IMG/VR virus record: IMGVR_UViG_3300038427_000078
DNA length: 64,000 nucleotides
Reading direction: 5' to 3' (one strand)
DNA from: a virus
Shown here: one piece after another, positions 1 through 13,155 of the stretch
How the letters are laid out: every line of letters starts with the position of its first letter
Position numbering within the stretch: position 1 is the stretch's first letter
Position numbers and translations under genes: made by a program
Notes under the pieces: model-generated
What the model saw: only the letters and a program-made list of their open reading frames with translations
Databases searched by the model: none
Told to the model about the DNA's origin: nothing

Positions 1-10
1 CATCGATGGC

Positions 11-451
11 ATGTACTGGCGTACATGTCCTGGGGGTCGAAAGTGGGTGACCGAGGGAGTTCGTCGTACGATGGGATGTGGATTCTACTCGCATGCTATC
101 GCAGAGGGCAAGAAGATTGTTCCTCCGAGAGAAGTCGAGGAGCAGGTCCAATGCCCCGGTCCTGGCTGTGATCGACCGGCTAAGACCGGAGGTCTTTGTC
201 CCGCCCACTACCAGCAGCAGAGGCAGGGCCGACCTTTGGCCCCCATCCGTGTGCATGACGGACTCGGGTACGACCGCTCTCGAAAAAGGAAGAGCCTCAA
301 GGAAAAAGAGAGGCGGCGCGTCGAGAAAGAGGAGCGCCAAGAACGTCCGAAGAAACCCAGGAAGAACGGGCGTCTAGTGGTCGTCGGGCGGGATGAGGAT
401 GGTCAGCCGATCACAATCCGAGAAGATTCGTCAGAGCATGCTACAATTTAG
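11..451 (+). CDS. hypothetical protein with Cys/His Zn-finger motif
   Basis: ORF with CPGPGC...LCPAHY motif and basic tail; true start may lie outside the window. Confidence 0.5.
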   Translation: MYWRTCPGGRKWVTEGVRRTMGCGFYSHAIAEGKKIVPPREVEEQVQCPGPGCDRPAKTGGLCPAHYQQQRQGRPLAPIRVHDGLGYDRSRKRKSLKEKERRRVEKEERQERPKKPRKNGRLVVVGRDEDGQPITIREDSSEHATI

Positions 452-655
452 TCATGACCCGTGCTAGAATAGATGAGATGGATCACTACACCGAACCCAT
501 TCTAGTCAAAGGAAACGCCAAGCAGGGCGGTTCCATCTGACCCTAGACGCATCCGCATAGGACGAGTCTAGGGGCTTCCGAGAGGAAGCCCTTGATGTTT
601 CCGGAGTAGTGTGGTAGGATCCAGAAGTACAGCAGCAAGACATAGAACAAAGCCT

Positions 656-730
656 CTCCTCGTAGCTCAGTCAGGACAGAGCAGCCGCCTTCTAAGCGGT
701 CGGTCGAGGGTTCGAATCCTTTCGGGGGGA
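656..730 (+). tRNA. tRNA-Arg(UCU)
   Basis: cloverleaf; anticodon arm gccgc-ct-TCT-aa-gcggt; T loop ttcgaat. Confidence 0.93.
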
Positions 731-961
731 CTTGACAGACGCAGATTCGTCTGCTACTCTGTCGAAACGGTAAGGTCCACCGTACATATCCAACGGACCG
801 GCTGGTCAGCCGTAACCATACGGCGAGTAGCTTGACGGACAGCGCCCAGGTGGGTGCGAGTCCAGCGCGAATAGCGGTTGAGCGATGTTGACACTTCTGC
901 CTCTCAGAGTAAGCAGCGGGTACAGAGTTCAGGGTTCGCGCCCGGAGCCAGCCAAATCTTC

Positions 962-1042
962 GCCAAGGTATGCAAGTGGACAAAGCACGCTGTCTGTAAA
1001 ACAGTTCTCTCGGGTTCGTAGGTTCGACTCCTACCCTTGGCA
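962..1042 (+). tRNA. tRNA-Tyr(GUA)
   Basis: acceptor gccaagg/ccttggc; loop ct-GTA-aa; long variable arm. Confidence 0.93.
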
Positions 1043-1109
1043 TAAAATCGAGTCCCCTCGCGGAAAATTTTTGCGGGGAATGCTCAGGCGAGATTAGCAT
1101 AATCTTCAC

Positions 1110-1132
1110 GCGCTGGTGATGGAACGGTAGAC
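1110..1132 (+). pseudogene. 5' fragment of a disrupted tRNA-Leu
   Basis: gcgctggtgatggaacggtagac = Leu-type acceptor 5' strand plus D arm; pairs with tcagcgc at 1790-1796. Confidence 0.7.
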
Positions 1133-1180
1133 TTGCTTTGTTTTCCATTCGCATCTGTGCTATAAGTAATAGAAGCATAC

Positions 1181-1265
1181 GTCCGCATGCTGGAACTCGG
1201 TAGACGGGCACGGTTGAGAGCCGTGTGGCCGAAAGGTCGTGTGGGTTCGACTCCCACTGTGGACA
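1181..1265 (+). tRNA. tRNA-Leu(GAG)
   Basis: acceptor gtccgca/tgtggac; cacgg-tt-GAG-ag-ccgtg; long variable arm with GAAA loop. Confidence 0.93.
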
Positions 1266-1267
1266 TC

Positions 1268-1750
1268 ATGGCATTTATCCATCGCTACACATTGGAGATG
1301 TTGGAAGAGGCAGCGGAGCACAGCACTTCGGTCGCTGGTGTCTGTCGTTATCTCAACATCAACAACCCTGGCGGTAGTTCGCAGACGAACATCCGCAATC
1401 GTCTTCGTGACTTCGGCATCGATACCTCACACTTCTTGGGTAAAGCTGCTCGCAAAGGAACACAAGCGAGCAATCGAAAGACGGCGGCAGAGATACTTGT
1501 ACGCCTTCCTTCTGGTGCCTACCGACCAGAAGCAAAGAAACTTCGACGGGCCTTGATCGAACAGGGACGAGAGTATGTCTGTGAGGGTTGCGGCAACAAA
1601 GCGTGGTGGAAAGAAGGCCCATTGACACTTGAAGTAGATCACATCGACGGCGATTGGCACAACAACGAAGAGGACAACCTTCGTTTCTTGTGTCCTAATT
1701 GTCATAGCGTTTACACGTTGCCCGGTGTACCATGTGGTACGGCGGACTAG
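1268..1750 (+). CDS. HNH homing endonuclease
   Basis: CEGC...LEVDHIDGDWHNNEEDNLRFLCPNCH. Confidence 0.9.
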   Translation: MAFIHRYTLEMLEEAAEHSTSVAGVCRYLNINNPGGSSQTNIRNRLRDFGIDTSHFLGKAARKGTQASNRKTAAEILVRLPSGAYRPEAKKLRRALIEQGREYVCEGCGNKAWWKEGPLTLEVDHIDGDWHNNEEDNLRFLCPNCHSVYTLPGVPCGTAD

Positions 1751-1797
1751 GACGTGGTGCCCTTCGGGGCGTGTGGGTTCGAATCCCACTCAGCGCA
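1747..1797 (+). pseudogene. 3' fragment of a disrupted tRNA-Leu(UAG)
   Basis: c-TAG-ga-cgtgg, variable arm gcccttcggggc, T arm gtggg-ttcgaat-cccac, acceptor 3' strand tcagcgc-a. Confidence 0.75.
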
Positions 1798-2070
1798 TAG
1801 GGCCGGTGGTCAGGCGACGGGGTAAGCTCCTGTCGAATGCAGCCGAGTAGGTCGGGGATCCAGGCGCGTCTGGTGAAAGACCCGTATCCCTCTTGAGGGG
1901 TGCCCATCTCAAGCACTTGGTTGCGGAGCGGTCAAGTGGGTAGAGGGCGGAAGCCAGCCTTGAAAGGTTGAGCCGAAAGCTCTAGCTCCAATGTTTCAAC
2001 TCCCGTGTAGTGGTGGAAGTCCACGTCGCGCAAGCGATTGTTACTGATGTGTGTCATGCACGGGAGCCAT

Positions 2071-2146
2071 GCCGCTGTGAAGGGAATTTGGCATACCTCT
2101 CACGCTTAGAACGTGAGGCTTGTGGGTTCGAGTCCCACTGGCGGCA
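2071..2146 (+). tRNA. tRNA-Leu(UAG), short variable loop
   Basis: gccgctg/tggcggc; tcacg-ct-TAG-aa-cgtga. Confidence 0.9.
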
Positions 2147-2164
2147 CTCAGTAGTGAAGTACCT

Positions 2165-2236
2165 GCCTCCGTATGGTTAGTGGTAGACCCTCCGACTTTT
2201 AATCGGGAAGCTGGGGTTCGATTCCCCACGGGGGTA
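2165..2236 (+). tRNA. tRNA-Lys(UUU)
   Basis: gcctccg/cgggggt; ccga-ct-TTT-aa-tcgg. Confidence 0.9.
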
Positions 2237-2387
2237 CTTTTGTGGTGATCGGCTGGGCTTGATCGGCCCGCTGTCCGATGGAAGGTGGTCGTGTGTCCAC
2301 TCTTCGACCCGCGTCAAGTAGGGCCACAACGAAGGGCAAGATACCTCCGTACCGCAGCGCGCCGGGACGATAGGTAACACACAACAT

Positions 2388-2460
2388 GGGCCTGTAGCTC
2401 AAATGGGAGAGCGCCTGCCTTGCAAGCAGGAGGTTGAGGGTTCGATTCCCTCTAGGTCCA
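2388..2460 (+). tRNA. tRNA-Ala(UGC)
   Basis: gggcctg/taggtcc with G3:U70; ct-TGC-aa. Confidence 0.95.
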
Positions 2461-2629
2461 CTGACTGTGGTGATCAGTCAAGCGGTAGCGGCCCCGGTAA
2501 AGGGTGCAGCCCGCACGAACTCACCACCGCCTCTGCGTTCACGGGCAGAGCAAATGGAAGTGTCGTGAGCTTCCCGTACAATTCTCTCTCCCCGATTTCA
2601 GTGCGTGGGATGGAGGGCGGTCGAATCAA

Positions 2630-2703
2630 CAGGGAGTAGCGCAGTCTGGTAGCGCACTTGGTTTGGAACCAAGGGGTCGCGGGTTCGAATCCCGCCTTCC
2701 TGA
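2630..2703 (+). tRNA. tRNA-Pro(UGG)
   Basis: cagggag/cttcctg; cttgg-tt-TGG-aa-ccaag. Confidence 0.95.
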
Positions 2704-2744
2704 TAGCAGAGGGACGGCTGCTTCGTAAACCGTCCCGCACTTAC

Positions 2745-2840
2745 GCGCCTGTAGCTCAGTGGTCAACGGTTCTCTTCGGGGAGCCAAAGAGTTGCCGCCT
2801 TTCAAGCGGTAGGTCCGGGGTTCGATTCCCCGTAGGCGCA
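2745..2840 (+). tRNA. tRNA with UUC (Glu) anticodon and an extra hairpin in the D loop
   Basis: gcgcctg/taggcgc; gccgc-ct-TTC-aa-gcggt; D loop contains ggttctc-TTCG-gggagcc. Confidence 0.8.
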
Positions 2841-2897
2841 TAACTCGTACCGCACCCCGGATTAGGGAGTACGAAGGCGGTGCAACGCCGCCACCAG

Positions 2898-2971
2898 CAG
2901 GGTATAGCGCAGTCTGGTAGCGCGCTCCCCTCGGACGGGAGAGGTCGTAGGTTCGAATCCTATTACCCTGA
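2898..2971 (+). tRNA. tRNA-Pro(CGG)
   Basis: cagggta/taccctg; ctccc-ct-CGG-ac-gggag. Confidence 0.95.
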
Positions 2972-3053
2972 TAGCGGCAGGCCATGGCCTGTCTCGAAGA
3001 TCCTCGGTTGAACCGTGAAGCCATAGTTACCACGGGCCGGTACGGATCGAGTT

Positions 3054-3126
3054 GCCGGTCTAGCTCTAATGGTAGAGCGCTTCCGTGGTAAGGAAGAGGT
3101 TCCGAGTTCGAATCTCGGGATCGGCT
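3054..3126 (+). tRNA. tRNA-Thr(GGU)
   Basis: gccggtc/gatcggc; cttcc-gt-GGT-aa-ggaag. Confidence 0.93.
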
Positions 3127-3388
3127 TAGCGGGGTAGACTCCATGCGCAGGGGTCGATGTCGAGGGAGTCATGACCCAAGGCACGCGGGTACCGACAGGC
3201 AAAGCGCCTGCTCGGTCCGTGCCGCACACTCATACCGTGCGCCGGGAAACCGCTAGACTGGCGGGTGTTACCGGATAAGGAGAGGCTAGTCACCGATCCG
3301 AAAAGGGATTGCTCGCACGGTTTTCTAGATTGATCGGTCGGCCTCCGGTAGAGGAGTAGCGGACGGGTCGCCCCTCCACGGAGGGCTT

Positions 3389-3460
3389 GCCAGCAAAGCG
3401 GAAGTGGTGCCGCACCCGTTTCGTAAGCGGGGGAATCGGGTTCAATTCCCGATGCTGGCT
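3389..3460 (+). tRNA. tRNA-Thr(CGU)
   Basis: gccagca/tgctggc; cccgt-tt-CGT-aa-gcggg. Confidence 0.88.
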
Positions 3461-3611
3461 TTGAGGCCGTGACCTCCGGGTAAGAAGCGCGGGGAGCGTC
3501 AGTCTTAGGTTGTCCAGGGTCTAAATTTGCGCCTGGCTGAGCAGCGGAGACTACATAACCGGCTCGCCTCACTTTCGTACTTTTCTTTCGGGTACGACAA
3601 GGTAATGTGTA

Positions 3612-4019
3612 ATGGTATGTGCTACCTGTAAAGAAGAGAAGGACTTGGACGAGTTCCATGCTGGTGCTCGCGTGTGTAAAGGCTGCAAGAAGGATGCCGA
3701 TGCTCGCTCGTTTCAGAAGCATCGGGAGGCTCGTCTAGAAAAGCGCCGACAGGATCGCCTCGCAGCACGCGAATGGTTTGAGTCCTTGAAGGCAGGAAAG
3801 AAGTGTGCCGACTGTGATCTGGATCATCCTCCGTGGAGGATGGATTGGGATCACCTTCCAGGCACAGAAAAGCTCTTTGAGATAGCCGATGTCAGCCACA
3901 TGGCAACGGGAGAGAAGGGCAAGCGGAAGATACTGGACGAGATTGCCAAGTGCGAGCTTGTCTGTGCCAACTGTCATCGAGACAGAACGCACGACCGCCG
4001 ACGGGGAGTGGCCCTGTAA
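3612..4019 (+). CDS. HNH homing endonuclease
   Basis: CxxC pairs; MDWDH...EIAKCELVCANCH. Confidence 0.88.
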   Translation: MVCATCKEEKDLDEFHAGARVCKGCKKDADARSFQKHREARLEKRRQDRLAAREWFESLKAGKKCADCDLDHPPWRMDWDHLPGTEKLFEIADVSHMATGEKGKRKILDEIAKCELVCANCHRDRTHDRRRGVAL

Positions 4020-4044
4020 CTCGGTTCGACTCCGAGTGTTGGCT
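4013..4044 (+). pseudogene. tRNA-Thr 3' remnant
   Basis: cc-TGT-aa followed by T arm ctcgg-ttcgact-ccgag and acceptor 3' strand tgttggc-t. Confidence 0.65.
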
Positions 4045-4089
4045 TCCATGGCAGACGAGGAGGCAAGCCCTCTCTTGACTCTGCCGCCA

Positions 4090-4162
4090 GGGGGATTGGT
4101 GTAAACGGCAATCATGATCGGCTCCAACCCGATTGATCAGGGTTCGAATCCTTGATCCCCCG
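4090..4162 (+). tRNA. tRNA-Trp(CCA)
   Basis: gggggat/atccccc; atcgg-ct-CCA-ac-ccgat. Confidence 0.9.
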
Positions 4163-4260
4163 CTGTAGCAGACGTGCTACCCGGCCAGGGGATCTACCTG
4201 GTGCAGGCCAATGCTGCCAGCCCACGCCAGTCGAAACGCTGTCCTGTGGCTGGCCTACCT

Positions 4261-4297
4261 GGTGTCTTAGCTCAGATGGTTAGAGCGCTGCCCTGTC
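4261..4297 (+). pseudogene. 5' half of tRNA-Asp(GUC), truncated right after the anticodon
   Basis: ggtgtct-ta-gctc-agatggtta-gagc-g-ctgcc-ct-GTC, then unrelated sequence. Confidence 0.8.
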
Positions 4298-4347
4298 TAG
4301 TAGACCACTGGCCTTCAAGGGCGGTGGTATCGGCTAGGTAATAGCTG

Positions 4348-4764
4348 ATGGCAACTACCAAGGACAAGGGCGACCTCGCTGAGCTACGCATCGCATCAGA
4401 CTTGATGCGGCAAGGATACAAGGTAGCTATTCCCTTCGGTGACAATTGGGACTTCGACCTGATCCTGTACCGCGATGGGTTCGAGAGGGTCCAGGTCAAG
4501 TACGCTCAGTCAGACGGTGAGAAGGTCGAGGTCAAGGCGGTAAGCTACTCGACCAACAAAGGTCTGACCATCTCAGCGAAACAGTACACCGCTGCTGAGA
4601 TTGACTGGCTTGCGGTGTACGATGTGACCACCGACGAATGCTTCTACGTGCCAGCTAGCGAGCTTGGCGACGGGATGAGGATGGTGACGCTCAGGTATAA
4701 GCCTGCGCGTAACAACCAGACCAAGGGCATCCGGTGGACGAAGGACTATGGGTCCGTAGCGTAG
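4348..4764 (+). CDS. PD-(D/E)XK homing endonuclease (family usually associated with tRNA group I introns)
   Basis: KGDLAE...GYKVAIPFGDNWDFDLI...RVQVK...IDWLAVY motif set. Confidence 0.88.
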   Translation: MATTKDKGDLAELRIASDLMRQGYKVAIPFGDNWDFDLILYRDGFERVQVKYAQSDGEKVEVKAVSYSTNKGLTISAKQYTAAEIDWLAVYDVTTDECFYVPASELGDGMRMVTLRYKPARNNQTKGIRWTKDYGSVA

Positions 4765-4823
4765 TGGTCTAACGCGCCTCCCTGTCAAGGAGGAGAACGG
4801 GGGTTCGAATCCCCTCGGTCCCG
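4750..4823 (+). tRNA. tRNA-Asp(GUC)
   Basis: gggtccg/cggtccc; cctcc-ct-GTC-aa-ggagg; overlaps the stop codon of the upstream ORF. Confidence 0.93.
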
Positions 4824-4845
4824 CTCAACAACGAAGCGGAGAATC

Positions 4846-4992
4846 ATGAAGCTCAGTAAGCTCAGTAAGCTAAGTCGTACATCCGAATTGCTCCCGTATC
4901 TTGAATCCGTTGAGCATTACGCCAACGCTGCCGTATACCACGGCACCTTCGAGGGCGAACAGTTCACGTTGACCTTTACCTTCGGCCCTTGA
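4846..4992 (+). CDS. small hypothetical protein (MKLSKLSKLSR...)
   Basis: ggaga RBS, 48 codons, 9-nt tandem repeat aagctcagt. Confidence 0.45.
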   Translation: MKLSKLSKLSRTSELLPYLESVEHYANAAVYHGTFEGEQFTLTFTFGP

Positions 4993-5000
4993 CTCGTCGC

Positions 5001-5029
5001 TTGACTTCTAGTCGTGGACCGTGTAGACT
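5001..5029 (+). promoter_or_regulatory. sigma70/SigA-type promoter, leaderless transcript
   Basis: TTGACT-N17-TAGACT with ATG 7 nt downstream. Confidence 0.75.
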
Positions 5030-5036
5030 ACGGTCC

Positions 5037-5504
5037 ATGAACCTACTAAAGACACTTCCTGTCGTGCTGCTCGTAGCCCTTGCTGGATGCGGAGCAGTTA
5101 CCAAAGCACCTGCCAAAGCACCTGCCCCGCACCCTAGTCTCCCCAAGGTGGTCAAGGTCACGGCGCAACCGACCACGACGACACCGGAACCCAGGCCCAG
5201 GCCCAAGCCTAGACCTGCGGTGGTAGTTCCTGTGCCTACTCCTACGCCTACATACCCGACATGCGATGGCGGACCCGTTGAATGCGGGAAGGCATCGGCA
5301 GCACCGACACGGGAAGAAAGTCTGCAACAGCACTACCGCGAAACCGGAGGCTGCGGTGGGGAAGGAGAGGCTGAATGTCCCGCCCACGGAGAAGGCAGCG
5401 GAGAAAATAGCGTCAACAGCACGGGTGAATCGCGTGCCTGTGCAGAAGAACGTAGTGAATACACAAGTGGCGAGAGGTCTAGTCTCCGCGTTGGCTGTCG
5501 ATAA
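5037..5504 (+). CDS. lipoprotein with Pro/Thr-rich stalk
   Basis: MNLLKTLPVVLLVALAG-C lipobox. Confidence 0.75.
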   Translation: MNLLKTLPVVLLVALAGCGAVTKAPAKAPAPHPSLPKVVKVTAQPTTTTPEPRPRPKPRPAVVVPVPTPTPTYPTCDGGPVECGKASAAPTREESLQQHYRETGGCGGEGEAECPAHGEGSGENSVNSTGESRACAEERSEYTSGERSSLRVGCR

Positions 5505-5544
5505 GTCAAGGCGGAGGTCGCGGGTTCGAGTCCCGTCGTTGTCG
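5505..5544 (+). pseudogene. 3' half of a tRNA-Asp(GUC)
   Basis: GTC-aa-ggcgg-aggtc-gcggg-ttcgagt-cccgt-cgttgtc-g. Confidence 0.75.
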
Positions 5545-5557
5545 CTCGCAGTACAAC

Positions 5558-5629
5558 GCGCTGGTAGCTCATTGGCAGAGCAATCGGTTTACACCCGATG
5601 TGTATGGGGTTCGATTCCCTGGTGGCGCA
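5558..5629 (+). tRNA. tRNA-Val(UAC)
   Basis: atcgg-tt-TAC-ac-ccgat; one acceptor mismatch. Confidence 0.88.
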
Positions 5630-5676
5630 TAGATGTCAAGTAGCTCTGTAGGCGCAGGGGGGTGCGACATCTTTGA

Positions 5677-5749
5677 GGGCGATTAGCTCAGTTGGGAGAG
5701 CGCCGTCGCGACATGGCGGAAGTCACTGGTTCGAGTCCAGTATTGCCCA
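5677..5749 (+). tRNA. tRNA-Val(GAC)
   Basis: gggcgat/attgccc; ccgtc-gc-GAC-at-ggcgg. Confidence 0.88.
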
Positions 5750-5938
5750 CTCTCCTGTCACCTAATTGGTGGCAGGGAATGCAAACCCACGACCAGCGTA
5801 AGAAAGGATGGTGATCCAGAAATCTACCTTGTAGACAGATGGTCGCCGTCCACAGTTGGTCGGCACTAAGTCGTTGGGGGAGGGTGAGGGCCGCTGGCTC
5901 TTAGCCCTCCCTCCGAGGTTCTTCGGAGCCTCACCCAT

Positions 5939-6335
5939 GGGCCTTTCCCGGTAATCGATTGGGTAGGTTCGGCAGTATGTCATGCAGCGGTCGTCACACC
6001 TACCTGACAAAAGCCATAACTGGCAACGCAACAGACACGCTCGCAATCCCCGCATCTCTCTTCGAGGTTCGGGCTAGCGACGTACTCGCTGTAGCCTAAG
6101 AAGCTACAAGCCGGGACCAGCCGAGTATCCTGGGAACAGAAACCTCGGAGGGCAGTGAGCGCCATGCCCTTGACGTGCAGAGTACCGTTGTAGTTACACC
6201 GCAAGGTGTTGGTAGCACCCCGCGCGTTCCCGGACGTATAACCGGGTGGTGGAGGCGGGCCATGCCTGTCCCAAAGCTGCTAGAAGTGACGCCTGTACGA
6301 GACTCAAGACGGCAGTTCGACTCTGCCAAGGTCCA
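5939..6335 (+). ncRNA. ssrA: tmRNA
   Basis: acceptor gggcctt/aaggtcc-a with G3:U; T arm ggcag-ttcgact-ctgcc; ATAACT-GGC resume context; tag ORF 6022-6099 GNATDTLAIPASLFEVRASDVLAVA*. Confidence 0.92.
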
Positions 6336-6369
6336 CTAAAACAAGGTCCATCCGTGCTAGAATAGATGG

Positions 6370-6807
6370 ATGGGCAGAGAGCAAAGACGAGCAAAGCAAT
6401 TGGGTATGCCGCATGGCACAGCCATGCACCGCTTGCGTAAACGAGTGATGTTTTCACTAGCTCAGGAGTTGCACTTGGATCAGTGCATCGTGTGTAAGAG
6501 GATGATCGAAGATGCTGACGACCTTAGCATCGAGCACATCCAGCCGTGGGAGGGCCGAGACACGTCCCTGTTTTGGGACATCACTAACATCGCTTTCTCT
6601 CATCGCTGGTGCAACCAACCTCATACGCGACCGGGCAAGCCTCCGGTTCATGACCTCAAGCCCGACATGTGGTGGTGCTCCCACTGCGAACAAGAACTTC
6701 CGCTTGATCGATTCGGCCTCAAGACAGTGACAAGTGGAGCTAAACGACCACGAAACTACTGCAACAAATGCCGTACCGAACGTAAAGCAATGGGCCTCTC
6801 GGCCTAG
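6370..6807 (+). CDS. HNH homing endonuclease
   Basis: CIVC...SIEHIQPW...NIAFSHRWCN plus C-terminal Zn ribbon. Confidence 0.82.
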   Translation: MGREQRRAKQLGMPHGTAMHRLRKRVMFSLAQELHLDQCIVCKRMIEDADDLSIEHIQPWEGRDTSLFWDITNIAFSHRWCNQPHTRPGKPPVHDLKPDMWWCSHCEQELPLDRFGLKTVTSGAKRPRNYCNKCRTERKAMGLSA

Positions 6808-6812
6808 TCCAC

Positions 6813-6841
6813 TTGACAAGCCGGAGAAGACGTGCTAAGCT
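6813..6841 (+). promoter_or_regulatory. SigA-type promoter
   Basis: TTGACA-N17-TAAGCT, ATG at 6848. Confidence 0.7.
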
Positions 6842-6974
6842 CCCGGCATGGAACAAGACAAAAACGGAAACCTGATCTGCAACGTCTGTGGACAGGATTG
6901 GGCAAGCCAACACACCATCGGGGCAACTGCCTCCAACCTCCCAGGAAGCCAAGTCAACCAAAGGAAGGCAAGTG

Positions 6975-7277
6975 ATGGGCTACTACATCGAGACACCCCT
7001 CCCGCTCGCGAAGGCACTTCAACTCGAAGAGCTTCACGGTGCGGAGCCGTACTCGGGTACGTTCGAGGACGTACCGGAGGGCAAGGTCGTAGTCGCAGTG
7101 GTACAGAACGGTCTGTTCGACGCCGCTGGCATCTGCTACGACGAGAACGAGTTCAAGGCATTCACCGCTGACCCAAGCGACACCAGGCCGAAAGACCTGT
7201 TGACGCTGGACAAGGACACCGCCCTACGGCTGTGCCCGCACGCAGCGGAGGTACTTGGAGAGGACGTGGCTACCTGA
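6975..7277 (+). CDS. hypothetical protein
   Basis: RBS aaggaagg; GC3-biased codons. Confidence 0.7.
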   Translation: MGYYIETPLPLAKALQLEELHGAEPYSGTFEDVPEGKVVVAVVQNGLFDAAGICYDENEFKAFTADPSDTRPKDLLTLDKDTALRLCPHAAEVLGEDVAT

Positions 7278-7483
7278 TGCCCGTCCTTTTCTTCATCATC
7301 GCAGGCATCATCCTGATCGCCAACTCGGGCTGGTTCCACGGAGCAGACATCGTTGGCATCGTCCTGCTCGTCTTTGGCGGGCTTGGACTTGTCCTCTGGC
7401 TCGTCGCTGCGAAATTCGCACGGAGCATCATCAAAGAGGTCAAAGGACCAGGGACACCCCGGCATCCCCGGAGGTTCCGCTAA
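7277..7483 (+). CDS. small two-TM membrane protein
   Basis: two hydrophobic stretches and basic tail; TGATG coupling. Confidence 0.7.
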   Translation: MPVLFFIIAGIILIANSGWFHGADIVGIVLLVFGGLGLVLWLVAAKFARSIIKEVKGPGTPRHPRRFR

Positions 7484-7490
7484 GTTGTTC

Positions 7491-7563
7491 GCCCTTGTAG
7501 CTCAGAGGATAGAGCATCGGTTTCCTAAACCGTGTGTCGCGGGTTCGATTCCCTCCGGTGCCA
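7491..7563 (+). tRNA. tRNA-Arg(CCU), degenerate acceptor and T stems (possibly pseudo)
   Basis: cggt-tt-CCT-aa-accg; acceptor gcccttg/cggtgcc has 2 mismatches. Confidence 0.6.
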
Positions 7564-7579
7564 TGGTATACTGTTGGGT

Positions 7580-7921
7580 ATGAGTGATCAAGACCTAACA
7601 GAGCAGCAAGTAGTGGCTGCGGAGGCCGGTGTCGGAGACAGCATACAGGCCATCGCGGACCGCGCAGTCAAGGCCGTCGAGGTACTGGACTTGAGCGAGG
7701 GCGATGTTCTCGTAGTCAAGCTCGGCATCGATGACATGGGTGACGGACTCCCACCGTGGATTCCGGGACCAGCGGAGCTAGAGCAGGTGTCAGATGCCTT
7801 GACCGCGACAGTGCCAGAGGGCGTACGGGTGCTAGTTCACCACCTGGGAATCAACTTCCAGATCGTACGCGGCCTCGACACCAGTAACCCGGTCGTAGTC
7901 GAATCGCTGCCAACAGAGTAA
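7580..7921 (+). CDS. small protein paralogous to an internal portal-protein domain
   Basis: KLGIDDMGDGLPPWIPGPAELE...RVLVHHLG matches portal KLGIMDMGDGLPPWLPGPEELE...RVMVHHFG. Confidence 0.85.
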   Translation: MSDQDLTEQQVVAAEAGVGDSIQAIADRAVKAVEVLDLSEGDVLVVKLGIDDMGDGLPPWIPGPAELEQVSDALTATVPEGVRVLVHHLGINFQIVRGLDTSNPVVVESLPTE

Positions 7922-7924
7922 CAC

Positions 7925-7999
7925 GCGGGAATAGCTCAGCCAGGTTAGAGCACTTCTCTGATAAGGAAGGGGTCAGAGGTTCAAATCCTCTTTTCCGCA
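7925..7999 (+). tRNA. tRNA-Ile(GAU)
   Basis: gcgggaa/tttccgc; ct-GAT-aa. Confidence 0.93.
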
Positions 8000-8084
8000 T
8001 CGCAGGAAAATCGGTCCTGAAAAATTAGGGTCGGCGCTCAGAAAAATTTTGCGCCAACTTCTCAGGCGAGATTAGCCTAATTAC

Positions 8085-8159
8085 GCCCAAGTGACGGGAA
8101 TTGGCATACCTGGCAAGCTCAAACCTTGTCGTTTGTGGGTTCGACTCCCACTTTGGGCA
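8085..8159 (+). tRNA. tRNA-Leu(CAA), short variable loop
   Basis: gcccaag/tttgggc; gcaag-ct-CAA-ac-cttgt. Confidence 0.9.
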
Positions 8160-8191
8160 CTTTTTGTCGAACCTTCTGACACGTAATATAC

Positions 8192-8524
8192 GTGGCATAC
8201 AAGGATCCTCAGAAGCAGAAAGAAGCACAGCATCGGTCATATCTGCGTAACAAAGAGATAATCCTCAGGCGCAGTTCTGATCGCATCAAAGAGCTTCGAC
8301 GCAAAGTGCGAGAGTACAAGGAGGAGCGTGGTTGTAGCGCGTGCGGGTACAACAAATACGGTGGGGCTATCGATGCTCATCACCCAAACGGCAAGGATAA
8401 CCAAGAACAGTGCATTGCCCGTTTGTGCAAACGGGCCTTTCCGTGGGAGACAATCCTTGCGGAGCTTGAGAAGTGCATTCTTCTCTGTTCCAACTGTCAT
8501 CGCGAGCACCATCGCGGTGAGTAG
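8192..8524 (+). CDS. HNH homing endonuclease
   Basis: CSACGY...IDAHH...ELEKCILLCSNCH. Confidence 0.88.
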   Translation: MAYKDPQKQKEAQHRSYLRNKEIILRRSSDRIKELRRKVREYKEERGCSACGYNKYGGAIDAHHPNGKDNQEQCIARLCKRAFPWETILAELEKCILLCSNCHREHHRGE

Positions 8525-8546
8525 CATAACGCGCTATACTGGAAAT

Positions 8547-8723
8547 ATGGGACCAGACAAATGTGGCGCAGAAGTCGGACTTTTGGCAAGATGCCAAAGA
8601 CCGGCGAATCACGACGGAGAGCACTCAGGGCCGATTTTCGTCCCTCAGTGGATTACCTATTTGGGCGAGGGTGACGAGATTCCTCGCAGTCAGTACCAAT
8701 CGTGCGGAGTGGAGCAACGGTAG
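8547..8723 (+). CDS. small hypothetical protein; stop codon lies inside tRNA-fMet
   Basis: TATACT 6 nt before ATG (leaderless); C..C..H..H motif. Confidence 0.55.
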   Translation: MGPDKCGAEVGLLARCQRPANHDGEHSGPIFVPQWITYLGEGDEIPRSQYQSCGVEQR

Positions 8724-8774
8724 CTCGCAAGGCCCATAACCTTGAGGTAGGAAGTTCGACTCTTCCCTCCGCTA
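8703..8774 (+). tRNA. tRNA-Met(CAU), initiator-like
   Basis: unpaired 1:72 (T:T); tggagc D stem; caagg-cc-CAT-aa-ccttg. Confidence 0.85.
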
Positions 8775-8786
8775 TAGCAGTACAAT

Positions 8787-8858
8787 TCCGGGTTCGTCTA
8801 ATCGGCAGGATGTCTGGTTCTGAGCCAGATGGTCAGGGTTCGAATCCTTGACCCGGAG
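8787..8858 (+). tRNA. tRNA-Gln(CUG)
   Basis: tccgggt/acccgga; tctgg-tt-CTG-ag-ccaga. Confidence 0.92.
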
Positions 8859-8920
8859 CTTTGGCAGTAGAAGGCGAACAGCGCTTAGAGCGGGTTCGTG
8901 GGATCCCGCGCTGTCAACAT

Positions 8921-8991
8921 TGGGGGTTCGTTCAACGGCAGGACAGCGGGCCTTGAACCCGCGAATCGGGGTTCGAATCCCTGACCCCCAG
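8921..8991 (+). tRNA. tRNA-Gln(UUG)
   Basis: tgggggt/accccca; gcggg-cc-TTG-aa-cccgc. Confidence 0.92.
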
Positions 8992-9073
8992 CTAGCAAGG
9001 CAAGGAGCCGGTAGGCGTGTGCTACCGGACCAGAACGAGGCGTCACTGCACGCCTACCTTGCCGCAATCTTTC

Positions 9074-9157
9074 GCCTCTCTGGTTGGAATGGTAGACACA
9101 GCGGGCCTAAACCCCGCCGATCTTCGGATCGTCCGAGTTCGACTCTCGGGAGAGGCA
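9074..9157 (+). tRNA. tRNA-Leu(UAA)
   Basis: gcctctc/gagaggc; gcggg-cc-TAA-ac-cccgc; long variable arm. Confidence 0.9.
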
Positions 9158-9159
9158 TC

Positions 9160-9234
9160 GCGTCGGAAGCTCAAGTGCGAGCGCCGCCCATTTGGGGGCG
9201 GAGGTCGAGGGCGATTAGCTCCCCTCTCGGCGCA
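9160..9234 (+). ncRNA. tRNA-like cloverleaf with non-canonical loops
   Basis: gcgtcgg/tcggcgc, gctc/gagc, ccgcc/ggcgg, gaggg/ccctc stems; no TTCGA loop; 8-nt anticodon loop. Confidence 0.6.
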
Positions 9235-9238
9235 ACAT

Positions 9239-9312
9239 GGTGGTCGTCATCTAATGGACTAGGATTCGAGGTTGTGAACCTCGCCATGCGGGTTCGATTC
9301 CCGTCGATCACC
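9239..9312 (+). tRNA. tRNA-His(GUG) with encoded G-1
   Basis: g-gtggtcg/cgatcac-c; cgagg-tt-GTG-aa-cctcg. Confidence 0.92.
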
Positions 9313-9324
9313 CTGGCAGCACAA

Positions 9325-9399
9325 GCGCCACTAGCTCAGTCTGGTTAGAGCAACTGTCTTATCAACAGCGTGTCCGGGGTTCAAATCCTCGGTGGCGCA
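9325..9399 (+). tRNA. tRNA with UAU anticodon (Ile AUA reader)
   Basis: gcgccac/gtggcgc; ctgt-ct-TAT-ca-acag. Confidence 0.8.
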
Positions 9400-9405
9400 C
9401 TTCAT

Positions 9406-9479
9406 GGCCCGTGGGTCTTATGGCAAGGATTCCGCGTTCTCAGCGCGTGAGATGATGGGTTCGAATCCCATACGGGCTA
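9406..9479 (+). tRNA. tRNA-Glu(CUC)
   Basis: ggcccgt/acgggct; cgcg-tt-CTC-ag-cgcg. Confidence 0.88.
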
Positions 9480-9554
9480 CTCTGTAGGTACCATTCGAAT
9501 GGCTCTGCCTGCGGAACGCTTGACTTCATCGCACCCGTGCGATATGATGTCGCT

Positions 9555-10208
9555 ATGTCGAGAGCAAGAGACTGGACCCACCCAATCACCGGCGAGCTAC
9601 ACTGGTTCGACGTACACGGCATGGCTGGGGTCCGGGAACTCGAAGTTCTCGCAGACGCCGAAGACATCGACTTGGACGACCTGTTCGACGCGAACCTCTC
9701 TTCTAAGGAGGTTCTGTTCCGGCTCAACAAGCTCAGTGAGCTAATCCCGGAGGCGGGCCTCAACAAGCTCAAGAAACGTCAGACACAGGGCGAGCCTGAG
9801 ACTTGCCGCATCTGCCCGCTACTCGGTCGGGAGTGCGAAGGTCGAATGACCAAACATCACTTCGTGCCGCGTTGGATCATGTTGGAACTGGCAGACTACG
9901 AGGTCTATGCACCGCGTAGGCTCTGCACAGTCCCGGCGTGCGCCGGGAGCCACCGTTGGCTCCACATGCGGACCGAGGAGGGATCGAAATCCATCGCTCC
10001 TTACCTCGACAAGAATGAGAAGGCACTAGCGCACCATCTCATCGGGACACTCCGTCAGGAGCGCCCCAGGATCTACGCCCTCCTCGCGGGCGGGGACAAG
10101 AACAGCTACGAGTGGCAACTTGTTCAGGATTGGCGGCGAGGACTGTTTGATGTCAGGGGGGAAGGGAAAGATCCCTTCCCTCGCTGGCAGCTACGAAACT
10201 CTCTGTAG
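9555..10208 (+). CDS. HNH-like protein
   Basis: CRIC...TKHHFVPR...VPACAGSH; upstream TTGACT-N17-TATGAT promoter; stop codon inside tRNA-Arg. Confidence 0.65.
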   Translation: MSRARDWTHPITGELHWFDVHGMAGVRELEVLADAEDIDLDDLFDANLSSKEVLFRLNKLSELIPEAGLNKLKKRQTQGEPETCRICPLLGRECEGRMTKHHFVPRWIMLELADYEVYAPRRLCTVPACAGSHRWLHMRTEEGSKSIAPYLDKNEKALAHHLIGTLRQERPRIYALLAGGDKNSYEWQLVQDWRRGLFDVRGEGKDPFPRWQLRNSL

Positions 10209-10271
10209 CTCAGTGGATAGAGCGTCCGGTTGCGATCCGGGAGGTCGGCGGTTCGAGTCCGTCCAGGGAGG
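10199..10271 (+). tRNA. tRNA-Arg(GCG)
   Basis: ctctctg/cagggag; tccgg-tt-GCG-at-ccggg. Confidence 0.9.
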
Positions 10272-10299
10272 TACGTTAGAACCCTGCTAAGGTGTAGAT

Positions 10300-10479
10300 A
10301 TGCCTTACGCAGATAGAGAGAAACAGGCGGCGTATCAACGCGATTGGTACCGACGCCACAAAGAGCAACATATCAACCGTATTCGTAACGAACGTCGTAA
10401 GAGGCGTGAAGTGGTCAACGAATACAAGCTCTCAAGAGGGTGTAACCGATCGCGGGTTCGATTCCCGCATAGTGCTTAG
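10300..10479 (+). pseudogene. truncated HNH gene fused to an orphan tRNA T arm
   Basis: MPYADREKQAAYQRDWY...EYKLSRGC resembles the N-terminus of 8192-8524, then gcggg-ttcgatt-cccgc. Confidence 0.7.
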
Positions 10480-10486
10480 ATCAAAC

Positions 10487-11073
10487 TTCGTATCAGGCGG
10501 TTGCTGCGCTTGAAAGACAGCGTAGAGGAAGTTCGGGGCATGCTGGCAGGGGAAACCTTGTCATCGGCTCAACTACACCGAGTGACACCGGCCCAAAGGA
10601 GGTACGCCCTCGTTGGTGTTCCGGCGCATGCAACTCCAAGTAGAGAACCCTACGGCGAAAGCTATGGGCATATCGGGTTGGAGGCTTAGATGGATGATCG
10701 CCACCAGTTACGACTCAGAGGAGAGACATGAACTACTGTGAAGCGATGGCCTACGTCGCGGGGCTGTTGGAGGGCGAGGGATGCTTCGATTTCGTAGCTC
10801 CCGGCCATCCAAGGATCCGCATGGAGACAACAGATGAAGATGTGGCATACTGGCTTCAACACTTGGTTGAAGGTGGGACAATCACTAATCGTCAGGGCAA
10901 ACGCAGTAATCACAGCGATTCGTTTGTGTGGCAAACGAGCAGGGCTGATGTGGTCAAGAAGGTCTTGACGGCAATCTATCCTTGGACAAGTGCTCGCAGG
11001 CGAGTAAAGATTGATGAACTCATGTCTGCTCTCTGAGCCGTAGTTGGTACAGAACCCCGGCTATCGATACGAA
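10487..11073 (+). ncRNA. rnpB: RNase P RNA (reduced S-domain, no P18) with an ORF inserted in P19
   Basis: P1 ttcgtatc/gatacgaa; P2 ggcggtt/gatcgcc; P3; GAGGAAGTTCGGGGC at 10525; TAGATGGATG; ACAGAACCCCGGCTA at 11049; P4 forms 8 bp with a bulged U. Confidence 0.88.
10728..11036 (+). CDS. single-motif LAGLIDADG homing endonuclease inside the RNase P RNA
   Basis: YVAGLLEGEGCF motif; RBS gaggag. Confidence 0.9.
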   Translation: MNYCEAMAYVAGLLEGEGCFDFVAPGHPRIRMETTDEDVAYWLQHLVEGGTITNRQGKRSNHSDSFVWQTSRADVVKKVLTAIYPWTSARRRVKIDELMSAL

Positions 11074-11114
11074 TATGCCCCTCGGCTCTGTTCAGAACGG
11101 CTTGGGGGCACCAA

Positions 11115-11188
11115 GCCTGTGATGCAGAAATGGTGCTGCGCTCGCCTTGTAAGCGAGAATAGACTCGGTTCGATTCCGAGCATAGGCT
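11115..11188 (+). tRNA. tRNA-Thr(UGU)
   Basis: gcctgtg/cataggc; ctcgc-ct-TGT-aa-gcgag. Confidence 0.88.
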
Positions 11189-11352
11189 CTGACTGCGCTC
11201 TTGCAAGCACCGGGAACCGGCGTGCGGCAGAGCGGCGCGCTGGTCACCCGTGGCTAGTCCTCATTTGCTCAACGCACCCCGGATTAGGGATTGGGCAGGC
11301 TAGTCTAGTGTGAGTACCCACTGATCGCGATGAGCGTGAGGGGAAATCCAAT

Positions 11353-11423
11353 GCGGATGTGGCGTAATGGTAACGTATTTGCCTTCCAAGCAAAGGTTGC
11401 GGGTTCGACTCCCGTCTTCCGCT
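11353..11423 (+). tRNA. tRNA-Gly(UCC)
   Basis: gcggatg/cttccgc; tttgc-ct-TCC-aa-gcaaa. Confidence 0.93.
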
Positions 11424-11489
11424 TCAACCCACGACACAAAGGAGGTACCCCATGCGGTTAGGCACTGTCTAATCGAAAGGAGGTACTAA

Positions 11490-11660
11490 GTGAACGGCAA
11501 CCTCGCAGCCAAGGCTGCGAAGCTCATGCAGAAGAACGGGAACCGCGACAAAGGAGGCGGATCCCACAAGTACGGACGCAACCGCAACAAGTGCGCCCGC
11601 TACCGCGCCCGCGTGGGGAAGCCCCGTGGTCCTGGTGTCGATGGAAACAAGAAACACTAG
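11490..11660 (+). CDS. small very basic protein (56 aa)
   Basis: strong RBS gaaaggaggt plus GTG; MNGNLAAKAAKLMQKNGNRDKGGGSHKYGRNRNKCARYRARVGKPRGPGVDGNKKH. Confidence 0.7.
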   Translation: MNGNLAAKAAKLMQKNGNRDKGGGSHKYGRNRNKCARYRARVGKPRGPGVDGNKKH

Positions 11661-11697
11661 AGGGTGGCCGACCGGCCCACTGGAACGGTCGGATTAG

Positions 11698-11768
11698 TGC
11701 TGTGTAGCTCAACGGTAGAGCAACTGGCTCATAACCAGAAGACGGCGGTTCGACCCCGCTCGCAGCGA
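11698..11768 (+). tRNA. tRNA-Met(CAU)
   Basis: tgctgtg/cgcagcg; ctgg-ct-CAT-aa-ccag. Confidence 0.88.
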
Positions 11769-11818
11769 CTCATAACTCACAGGCTCCTTTCGAGCCATTT
11801 CCGGGCGCATAATGCTTG

Positions 11819-12163
11819 ATGGCATACAAGAACAAGGTCGATCAAGCAGCCTCTTCTCGTCGTCATTACCTTCGTAACCAGAAGGCGATGAAGGAGAGGG
11901 CTGAACTCAAGAACCGCGAACGTCATGCAGAATACGCGGAGAAGATCAAGGTTGCGAAGGCTAGACCTTGCGCCGATTGCAACATCGAATACCCTCACTA
12001 CGTCATGGACTTCGATCATGTGCGTGGCAAGAAGGTCGGGAACGTATCGACCATGGCTCATGCCTTGCGACCTTGGAAGCTGATCGAACAAGAGATTGCG
12101 AAGTGCGATGTCGTCTGTTCTAATTGTCATCGAGAGCGTACGTATGTTCGACTCTCCGCATAG
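11819..12163 (+). CDS. HNH homing endonuclease
   Basis: CADC...MDFDHVRG...EIAKCDVVCSNCH. Confidence 0.88.
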   Translation: MAYKNKVDQAASSRRHYLRNQKAMKERAELKNRERHAEYAEKIKVAKARPCADCNIEYPHYVMDFDHVRGKKVGNVSTMAHALRPWKLIEQEIAKCDVVCSNCHRERTYVRLSA

Positions 12164-12390
12164 CGATTTCATCATCCGGGCGCGAAACCTGCTATCATCG
12201 GTAGAGTAATGGTTGGAGACAGACACATGGACAACGGTGGCTATCAATGCTCGACTTCATCTTCCGATACCTGTGTCGGCGCTTCGGCCATCGCTGGATT
12301 GCCGAGGAAACCTACGCTGGCGAGTGGTGGGACATCTGCGCCCGCTGCCACGCTGTGCGCAAACACCAACCGGGGAGAAATTGAAGGTCC

Positions 12391-13155
12391 ATGAGCGAGA
12401 CAGACGCACAGAAGATCGCGCAGTTGAAGCATCTCATCGATGAGACACACAAACACGGTGAGAGGATCCAGGTCGAAATCCAGAAACTACAGGCGGCACA
12501 CGCCTCTCATGTTCAGATCGACATCAAGAAGGGTCTGTTGAAGGGGCTAGAGCTTCTGAACGCACACCGTCGTAGGGAACTAGAGGAGCTTGAACATCCG
12601 GCTCCGAAACCTGCACCTGAGCCTCCGAAACCTGCTCCGAAACCGAAACCAGCGCCGAAACCCAAGCCGAAACCGAAGCCGAAGCCACCGGCTCCGCAGC
12701 GGTTCCACATGCTCGACTCCACGAACGCCGACAGTCTCCCGGAGGAGGGAGAGGCAGCGGTCGCCGGTTACGTCAACGGGATCTTCAACGACTTCGACAA
12801 CATCGTCAAGCGCTTCCCGCACCTGAAACACCTGTCGATCAGCGTGTTCTCTGGCGAGGACGCCGACGCTCTCGACGTAGAGAACGGGGACGCGACACCG
12901 GGCGAGGCACCAGGCTGGGTACGCAAACAGCACGCACGCGGAAAGGCCCGCCCTGTGGTCTACGCCAATGCGAGCACGATGCCCCAGGTTGTGCAAGCCT
13001 TGACAGACGACGGCATCAAGAGGGACGAATATCTCCTATGGGTGGCCGACTATGACGGGAAGGCCGACATCCCGGAGGGCTTCGATGCCAAGCAGTACGA
13101 AGACCACAATGAAGAGTACGACATCTCGATCTGTGAGCCTTGGTTCTTGGACTGA
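12391..13155 (+). CDS. endolysin-like glycoside hydrolase (GH25-like C-terminal domain, Pro/Lys linker)
   Basis: LDVE..DA, PVVY, LWVADY, AKQY motifs; adjacent holin-like gene. Confidence 0.65.
   Translation: MSETDAQKIAQLKHLIDETHKHGERIQVEIQKLQAAHASHVQIDIKKGLLKGLELLNAHRRRELEELEHPAPKPAPEPPKPAPKPKPAPKPKPKPKPKPPAPQRFHMLDSTNADSLPEEGEAAVAGYVNGIFNDFDNIVKRFPHLKHLSISVFSGEDADALDVENGDATPGEAPGWVRKQHARGKARPVVYANASTMPQVVQALTDDGIKRDEYLLWVADYDGKADIPEGFDAKQYEDHNEEYDISICEPWFLD

Follow-up and report, generated by a model that had tools for sequence, protein, structure and literature searches.

A free-standing I-Ssp6803I-family nuclease gene and a complete tRNA-Asp gene between the halves of a broken tRNA-Asp gene in a peat-soil phage

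Homing endonucleases are thought to need an intron or an intein to sit harmlessly in an essential gene. How the gene of such a nuclease can lie in the middle of a transfer RNA (tRNA) gene with no intron around it is the question raised by a locus of the virus record IMGVR_UViG_3300038427_000078 (IMG/VR). The DNA analyzed (64,000 nucleotides, one strand, 5' to 3'; hereafter the window) is that of a large uncultured peat-soil phage. The locus (4261-5544) comprises the two halves of a tRNA-Asp(GUC) gene, separated by an insert with a nuclease gene, a complete tRNA-Asp(GUC) gene and two further open reading frames (ORFs), all on the plus strand. An earlier note, made from the sequence alone, had read it as an intron-free cassette of an I-Ssp6803I-family nuclease and a divergent, complete tRNA-Asp gene, and this core reading was supported by the present analysis. 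The locus is probably an intron-less homing-endonuclease cassette which lodged in the anticodon of the original tRNA-Asp gene and brought a replacement tRNA with it.

The 5' half of the ancestral tRNA-Asp gene (4261-4297) runs from the 5' acceptor strand to the anticodon GTC (4295-4297). The acceptor strand GGTGTCT is followed by the D arm, the anticodon-stem strand CTGCC, the loop nucleotides CT and GTC; taken alone, this half was not called as a tRNA by ARAGORN or Rfam. The 3' half (5505-5544) opens with a second copy of the anticodon (GTC, 5505-5507) and continues with AA, the stem strand GGCGG, the variable loop, the T arm, the acceptor strand CGTTGTC and the discriminator G. The insert between the halves (4298-5504) has a length of 1207 bp and is bordered at both ends by the anticodon as a 3-nt direct repeat. 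The tRNA-Asp gene of the related phage contig G005 was matched to the window with blastn-short. Its positions 6-37 matched 4266-4297 (96.9% identity, E 1e-11) and its positions 35-66 matched 5505-5536 (93.8% identity, E 3e-9), the overlap of the two matches being the anticodon GTC only. The 5' half was equally similar to positions 6-37 of the tRNA-Asp of G004 (96.9%), and the 3' half was 96.8% identical to positions 35-65 of that of G001. Divergence from the intact gene begins right after GTC on the left side and right before GTC on the right side. As had been claimed, the gene is broken at its anticodon, and the 3' half completes the anticodon stem, CTGCC and GGCGG pairing with one G.U. The D-arm region of the 5' half (4267-4284) is complementary in 15 of 18 positions to 4563-4580 inside the nuclease ORF; by a rough estimate this is about chance level in 1.4 kb and indicates a possible antisense contact at most.

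Synteny, which the earlier note had named as a check, was examined in five related large phage contigs (G001-G005), which were picked through portal searches. The order of the array in all five is Thr(ggt)-Thr(cgt)-Trp-Asp-(Lys)-Val(tac)-Val(gac)-tmRNA (transfer-messenger RNA), or a subset of it. At the slot of the two halves, after tRNA-Trp, an uninterrupted tRNA-Asp(gtc) gene was present in five of five, and neither the nuclease (PF11645) nor the lipoprotein-like ORF of the insert was found in these contigs. The right flank is native, since the spacers that follow the 3' half here and the tRNA-Asp gene in G005 are homologous. In IMG/VR, a 20-mer of the tRNA-Asp core was found in 34 contigs, all with an intact tRNA-Asp and none with a broken one, and words specific to the unusual acceptor strands of either half had no match.

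The window was assembled from a metagenome, and tRNA cores recur in different organisms (depth spikes at 5505-5539), so that the structure could in principle be an assembly chimera of two phage strains. Contig L167 (8.5 kb), which is from another ENA sample, is identical to window 37-8114 at 100%. A contig of the Joint Genome Institute (JGI) is identical to 4852-5769 at 100%, and for two further short contigs the identity is 99.9%. Both junctions are spanned with zero differences by contigs of four other runs from peat or wetland (2017-2025). The junctions were reproduced in independent assemblies and runs and the structure is therefore not an assembly artefact; a chimera that recurs at 100% in this way is next to inconceivable.

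The insert starts with a leader of 50 nt (4298-4347) with an AGGT ribosome-binding site 8 nt before the ATG of the nuclease gene. The leader has no similarity to the related phages. The free-standing nuclease gene (4348-4764) encodes a PD-(D/E)XK homing endonuclease of 138 amino acids. The protein matched PF11645 over residues 3-135 of 138 with an E-value of 2e-33 and 115.8 bits (cut-off 26.1). A phmmer comparison with I-Ssp6803I (PDB 2OST) gave an E-value of 5.6e-4 at a sequence identity of about 20%. The AlphaFold model (predicted local distance difference test 90) was compared to known structures with Foldseek; ranks 1-4 were all 2OST chains, with template modelling scores of 0.74/0.70 and an E-value of 1e-9 over the whole length. 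The predicted catalytic residues E12, D35/D37 and Q49-V50-K51 are present and are invariant in the family alignment (20 homologues). E12 aligns with the position of I-Ssp6803I which is mutated in E11Q, and this mutation inactivates I-Ssp6803I (PMC2175346). Profile, sequence and the restriction-endonuclease-like fold all place the nuclease in the I-Ssp6803I family, with intact catalytic residues. In IMG/VR, the nuclease query recovered a single distant locus at 27% identity.

The nuclease gene overlaps the complete resident tRNA-Asp(GUC) gene (4750-4824; found by ARAGORN and by Rfam at 68.4 bits), as the earlier note had described, and the nuclease stop codon (4762-4764) lies 13-15 nt inside the tRNA. 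The resident tRNA is identical to the tRNA-Asp of G005 in 58 of 75 positions. Its acceptor stem is like those of G004 and G005, with the unusual U4:U69 mismatch in common, and its D, anticodon and T stems differ from theirs through compensated changes. The anticodon stem reads CCTCC/GGAGG in the resident gene versus CTGCC/GGCRG in the broken gene and the relatives (GGCAG in G004 and G005). The word of the resident anticodon arm was found in six IMG/VR contigs, none of them with the nuclease. Capture of the resident tRNA-Asp from a Thermoleophilia host was tried as a source and rejected; the best matches in 151 genomes of this group were tRNA-Glu(CTC) genes at 79% or short segments. To judge from these alignments, a recent capture from Thermoleophilia is not visible in the 151 genomes.

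The archetype I-Ssp6803I is encoded in a group I intron in the anticodon loop of the tRNA-fMet of Synechocystis PCC 6803 (PMC1995217). As the same position is affected here, the insert might be a decayed descendant of a tRNA-Asp intron that encoded the nuclease, lost its ribozyme and gained extra genes. An Rfam scan of window 1-12500 with E-values up to 1 gave no match to a group I intron. The non-coding DNA of the insert outside the ORFs and the tRNA amounts to about 110 nt, which is too little for a ribozyme core. Furthermore, there are no boundaries for which the 5' exon ends in U and the insert at the same time ends in G. The claim that this is an intron-free version was borne out, because a group I intron is missing from the Rfam results and the splice-site rules cannot be satisfied. 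A replacement tRNA would be needless if the insert were spliced out, and none of about 90 relatives inspected sits in an intron. Decay of an intron is thus very improbable. Two other known arrangements were tried and rejected. For a split tRNA of the Nanoarchaeum type, no inverted repeat longer than 6 bp was detected between 4298-4360 and 5440-5504, and the acceptor strands form five of seven pairs. For an integrase-borne island, no recombinase was among the insert ORFs, and the repeat measures 3 nt versus at least 7 nt for attachment (att) sites.

Relatives of the nuclease were inspected at about 80 Thermoleophilia loci and in eight cultured phages. All of these nucleases are free-standing, and nearly all abut a tRNA gene. 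The statement of the earlier note that the family normally resides in group I introns thus applies to the archetype and not to the relatives inspected. The closest homologues of the nuclease (47-63% identical) are all in Thermoleophilia, from species genomes of which the best 80 loci (L037-L116, 47-60% identical) were taken. At 75 of the 80 loci, the distance from the end of the nuclease match to a tRNA-Ala(TGC) gene is no more than about 300 nt, and mostly between a few and about 50 nt; of these 75 tRNA genes, 54 are convergent and 21 co-directional with the nuclease gene. Four of the other five loci have their tRNA-Ala further off. Introns were not seen at the Thermoleophilia nuclease loci, and half-tRNA scars beside the nucleases amounted to chance-level matches of 11-15 nt only. 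The 79 nuclease-linked tRNA-Ala(TGC) genes vary almost exclusively in the anticodon stem and at positions 32 and 38, with 35 distinct stem-loops among them. As a within-genome control, the nearby tRNA-Ala(CGC) was compared; it is identical in 15 of 15 genomes in which the anticodon stem of tRNA-Ala(TGC) varies. Hypervariability of the anticodon arms of nuclease-linked tRNAs would be the signature of an arms race, and as such it supports the view that the nuclease acts on this arm. The chromosome of Svornostia abyssi (G006) carries three copies of the nuclease gene (1006335-1007257 and 4036369-4036835), a tandem pair beside one tRNA and a single copy at a distance of 4 nt before another.

In three cultured phages the last 7-22 nt of the nuclease ORF overlap a tRNA gene of the same direction, namely tRNA-Ile in Pectobacterium phage My1, tRNA-Ser in Streptomyces phage Navo and tRNA-Val in Synechococcus phage Sf-FR1. 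The overlapping pairs are located at 1501-1968 in L177 (My1), 1492-1934 in L178 (Navo), 1486-1971 in L179 (Sf-FR1) and 4348-4824 in the window. The recurrence of this layout in three unrelated cultured phages suggests that 5' processing of the tRNA trims the nuclease message. Processing by ribonuclease P would take the stop codon off this message; the window phage also encodes a tmRNA. In Acinetobacter phage Herod the nuclease gene lies between tRNA-Arg and tRNA-Met, in Salmonella phage vB_SenA_SM5 (L181) between two tRNA-Met(CAT) genes, and in Halorubrum virus HSTV-4 its start is 3 nt downstream of tRNA-Asn. Enterococcus phage EFP01 is the only one without an annotated tRNA near the nuclease. 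The flanking of the SM5 nuclease by tRNA-Met is noted here beside the tRNA-fMet target of the archetype.

Presence and absence of the nuclease at one and the same locus was observed twice, at the window locus (0 of 5 related contigs) and in Streptomyces phages of the BE type, where the nuclease gene is present in six records and the same slot is empty in many others. The tRNA-Ser(gct) adjacent to the nuclease gene of Navo (L178, carrier) was compared with that of the non-carriers Jay2Jay, Liandry and Larnav (L184-L186). The D arm and the entire anticodon stem differ between carriers and non-carriers, while acceptor stem, T arm and 3' part are identical. This pattern is as expected if the nuclease cuts the anticodon arm of non-carriers and is co-inherited with a resistant allele. 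In both groups the carrier's own putative site differs from that of the nuclease-free genomes, in the tRNA-Asp stem here and in the tRNA-Ser stem in Navo.

An insertion unrelated to the nuclease, by random illegitimate recombination or site-specific integration which hit the anticodon by chance, has to be weighed at this point. Integrative elements often use the anticodon or T loops of tRNA genes, and a repeat of 3 nt can arise by chance. The insert contains no integrase or transposase, its nuclease is from the one family known to cut the DNA of tRNA anticodons, and the entire nuclease clade is tied to tRNA genes. Such a coincidence is accordingly rated as quite improbable.

The preferred explanation, insertion of a nuclease cassette at its own cut, can be described by analogy with the archetype. 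I-Ssp6803I recognizes the DNA of the anticodon stem-loop of tRNA-fMet, which is a pseudopalindrome (PMC2175346). The enzyme is a tetramer which cuts across the minor groove and leaves 3' overhangs (PMC2175346, PMC3384342). The key unit of the cassette would be a nuclease gene directly followed by a tRNA gene. Like I-Ssp6803I, the nuclease would bind the pseudo-palindromic DNA of the anticodon stem-loop and cut on both sides of the anticodon triplet, with 3' overhangs left behind. A tRNA-Asp gene of the common type (stem CTGCC/GGCRG) would have been cut in this manner, and a donor fragment with the leader, the nuclease gene, the variant tRNA-Asp and the two downstream ORFs would have been joined into the break. 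Retention of both overhangs would produce the order GTC, insert, GTC. Donor and recipient flanks appear too dissimilar for homologous repair, and joining of the ends is proposed for this reason. The old tRNA-Asp gene would be dead after this event and the resident tRNA-Asp would take over the decoding of aspartate codons; its own anticodon stem (CCTCC/GGAGG) is presumably not cut.

The same array contains further candidates for such events. Two pieces of a tRNA-Leu gene are present, a 5' part (1110-1137) and a 3' part (1770-1797) which is 100% identical to the corresponding stretch of the tRNA-Leu(gag) gene of G003. Between them lie an intact tRNA-Leu(gag) gene (1181-1265) and an ORF (about 1187-1750) which is a weak HNH match according to the gene calls on contig L167. 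A fragment of tRNA-Thr(cgt) at 4018-4044 (27 nt, T arm and 3' acceptor strand) is 100% identical to the corresponding genes of G003 and G004. It follows an HNH gene (3612-4019), which is preceded by an intact tRNA-Thr(cgt) gene with a variant T arm (3389-3460). Judged by its gene content, window 3389-4044 appears to be another such cassette, in which an endonuclease gene is combined with the replacement of part of a tRNA. Disruption of a tRNA gene by an endonuclease cassette that provides a substitute would thus seem to be a recurrent theme in this array.

Several observations weigh against a single insertion at a nuclease cut. Most of them concern the acceptor stem. GGTGTCT and CGTTGTC form five of seven pairs in the standard register, three of them G.U. 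The earlier note had the acceptor strands as unpaired; this does not hold in the strict sense, and what stands is that the stem is mostly wobble. When the halves were joined in silico, ARAGORN still called a tRNA-Asp, in a shifted register and with a mostly wobble acceptor stem. The pair 7:66 is discordant, with T7 in the 5' half and C66 in the 3' half; T7 is as in G004 and G005, and C66 is as in the resident tRNA-Asp. Given the poor acceptor stem and the discordant pair, a single simple insertion is not the whole history. Compared with the relatives, 7 of 14 acceptor-strand positions are changed, and about 3 of 59 in the remainder of the two halves. The acceptor strands of the other tRNA fragments in the array are intact, and a general pressure towards scrambling of such strands is therefore absent. 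The nearest relatives also differ, being G004 and G005 for the 5' half and G001 for the 3' half. Two alleles or more than one event may therefore be involved in the history. The suggestion that the halves come from two ancestors is plausible, in that the pair 7:66 is discordant and the acceptor strands are divergent; the anticodon stem taken alone, however, is also compatible with a single gene.

Other points on this side concern the comparison and the enzyme. An accidental 3-nt repeat at the junctions has a chance of 1 in 64. The relatives with the intact gene are distant (portal 57-73% identical). A cassette-free allele of the lineage itself was not found, two scans of JGI metagenome contigs with flank words giving zero. 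The joint 4297->5508 was likewise absent from the contigs of the four peat or wetland runs, and an empty allele may still exist. Joints 4295->5715 and 4818->5684, which do occur in these runs, have short sides (28 and 20 nt) that resemble tRNAs of other organisms. A second copy of the whole cassette was found nowhere in the searches run. In Thermoleophilia the nuclease gene is at a conserved chromosomal site and could be domesticated rather than an active selfish gene. Cleavage of tRNA-Asp DNA by the nuclease is suggested by analogy with I-Ssp6803I. The overhang geometry assumed for it follows Bonocora and Shub (2001), who reportedly found that I-Ssp6803I cuts each strand beside the anticodon triplet and leaves 3-nt 3' extensions.

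A history in more than one step would involve the same players. One-ended strand invasion at the tRNA, completed by end joining, would first give the 5' half, the nuclease gene and the whole tRNA; a separate recombination or partial duplication with another tRNA-Asp allele would then bring the ORFs and the 3' half. Such a course would agree with the discordant pair 7:66, with the concentration of differences in the acceptor strands and with the different nearest relatives of the two halves. Moreover, the trailers of the resident tRNA-Asp and of the 3' half, the latter being native, resemble each other (repeat D1), and the tRNA-Thr(cgt) case shows a 3' fragment only, after an HNH gene. More events are needed for it, and the halves meet at exactly the same triplet, their anticodon-stem strands are mutually compatible, and the downstream spacer is native. 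We regard this history, the foremost alternative, as rather unlikely, and insertion at the nuclease cut remains the preferred reading.

Downstream of the resident tRNA, the insert contains a small ORF (4846-4992, 48 amino acids), which is a putative coding sequence with no function assigned, and a lipoprotein-like ORF (5037-5504, 155 amino acids) with a signal peptide and an LAGC lipobox, both as listed by the earlier note. The lipoprotein-like ORF also has a Pro/Thr-rich linker and a Cys-rich C-terminus, and its TAA stop codon abuts the right junction. The two ORFs would be the cargo which, in the reading of the earlier note, the cassette moves. No homologue was found for either ORF, and Pfam, PHROGs and NCBIfam gave nothing above noise. 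The sole match of the lipoprotein-like ORF among 5.8 billion proteins was the protein itself, and its Atlas matches were all below 0.9. It has no similarity to the membrane ORF which lies between tRNA-Trp and tRNA-Asp in the relatives.

The first 12 kb of the window form a dense array of 28 tRNA genes and one tmRNA gene (ARAGORN), and an extra tRNA at 7491-7563 was found by Rfam only. HNH endonuclease genes are scattered through the array according to profile searches. Beyond it, terminase, portal, RIIA, tRNA nucleotidyltransferase and helicase genes represent virion and replication functions. Many metagenomes of peat and wetland, dated 2017 to 2025, contain DNA of this phage. A megablast search of window 4000-5800 against 50,697 phage records and a tblastn search of a large window protein against the phage collection gave no match. 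The 96-nt tRNA at 2745-2840 (Rfam, 57.5 bits) could not be assigned to a type by ARAGORN; it can be read as a tRNA-Glu(UUC) whose D loop contains an additional hairpin (about 21 nt) capped by UUCG. The tmRNA was located at 5939-6336 by ARAGORN, and the same slot holds one in the relatives. No tmRNA family was reported in the Rfam scan of 1-12500 with E-values up to 1, so the tmRNA of the window is a divergent form. In the relatives a block Arg(cct)-Ser(gct)-Asn-Cys-(Ser)-Phe lies between Val(gac)/tmRNA and Ile(gat). At its place, window 5750-7925 holds only the extra tRNA at 7491-7563, plus an HNH gene (6370-6807).

A wider reading, to which we give an even chance, takes the window locus as the fossil of a widespread class of intron-free elements, not described before, in which a nuclease of the I-Ssp6803I family is permanently tethered to a tRNA gene. 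Such elements would attack the anticodon arms of rival tRNA genes, spread together with a resistant allele and thereby drive a rapid compensated turnover of anticodon stems (and D stems). In cases without homology, such as this one, they would still invade by end joining, destroying the target and substituting their own tRNA and neighbouring genes. The same joint reading would extend this turnover to Streptomyces, cyanobacterial, enterobacterial and haloarchaeal phages and to Thermoleophilia chromosomes. The locus itself shows a route other than the intron or intein, which is to kill the target gene and to bring a replacement. The I-Ssp6803I family, which had looked like a cyanobacterial intron curiosity, appears to be a broad group of free-standing enzymes partnered with tRNA genes. 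If these nucleases select for new anticodon arms, they would be a hidden force behind tRNA diversity and the turnover of phage tRNA arrays. They would also be a means for tRNA and neighbouring genes to move between phages, and they would supply compact nucleases whose tRNA-shaped target sites are long and predictable. Cultured Streptomyces phages that carry or lack the nuclease gene are a ready experimental system in which the idea is directly testable.

Free-standing endonucleases which cut tRNA genes in phage tRNA clusters, and endonuclease genes which split other genes, are already known. Stand-alone PF11645 genes were counted in jumbo gut phages, with no mention of tRNAs (PMC12880540). The literature searched, which was poor in subscription journals, provisionally gave no description of intron-free action of an I-Ssp6803I-family enzyme at a tRNA anticodon, of a target gene that is broken while a replacement tRNA is carried along, or of a systematic tethering of the PF11645 family to tRNA genes with hypervariable anticodon arms. 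SegB of phage T4 (GIY-YIG) and F-TflI, F-TflII as well as F-TflIV of phage T5 (HNH) are free-standing enzymes encoded in phage tRNA clusters; they cut the tRNA genes of relatives and drive their own inheritance together with flanking tRNA genes, and trimming of their transcripts by tRNA processing was proposed (PMC2330249). They resemble the case described here in that a free-standing endonuclease gene lies inside a phage tRNA array. In contrast, they belong to other nuclease families, SegB recognizes a sequence of the T arm and not of the anticodon arm, and the genes sit between intact genes and spread by homologous co-conversion; a broken target with a spare copy was not described for them. 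The nrdA gene of phage Aeh1 is reportedly split by insertion of the homing-endonuclease gene mobE ('genes in pieces'), and Dassa et al. (2009) are said to have described further genes split in this way as 'fractured genes'. These cases share with the window the free-standing endonuclease within a gene and the absence of an intron or intein; their protein pieces still cooperate, whereas the split RNA gene here would be dead and a whole replacement is carried. Genomic islands and prophages which integrate in tRNA genes carry a copy of the displaced tRNA segment. They are alike in the insertion inside a tRNA gene and in the incoming tRNA sequence that keeps function, and they differ by their integrase and their matching 3' segment, versus no integrase, a 3-nt repeat and a whole tRNA here. 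With I-Ssp6803I the nuclease shares family, fold, catalytic residues and presumably the kind of target, the DNA of a tRNA anticodon stem-loop, and the break is likewise centred on the anticodon; I-Ssp6803I differs by its intron and its tRNA-fMet target, as compared to a phage, a tRNA-Asp gene and about 20% identity here. In the archetype the interrupted tRNA is restored by splicing, whereas in the window it is replaced by a second gene in the insert.

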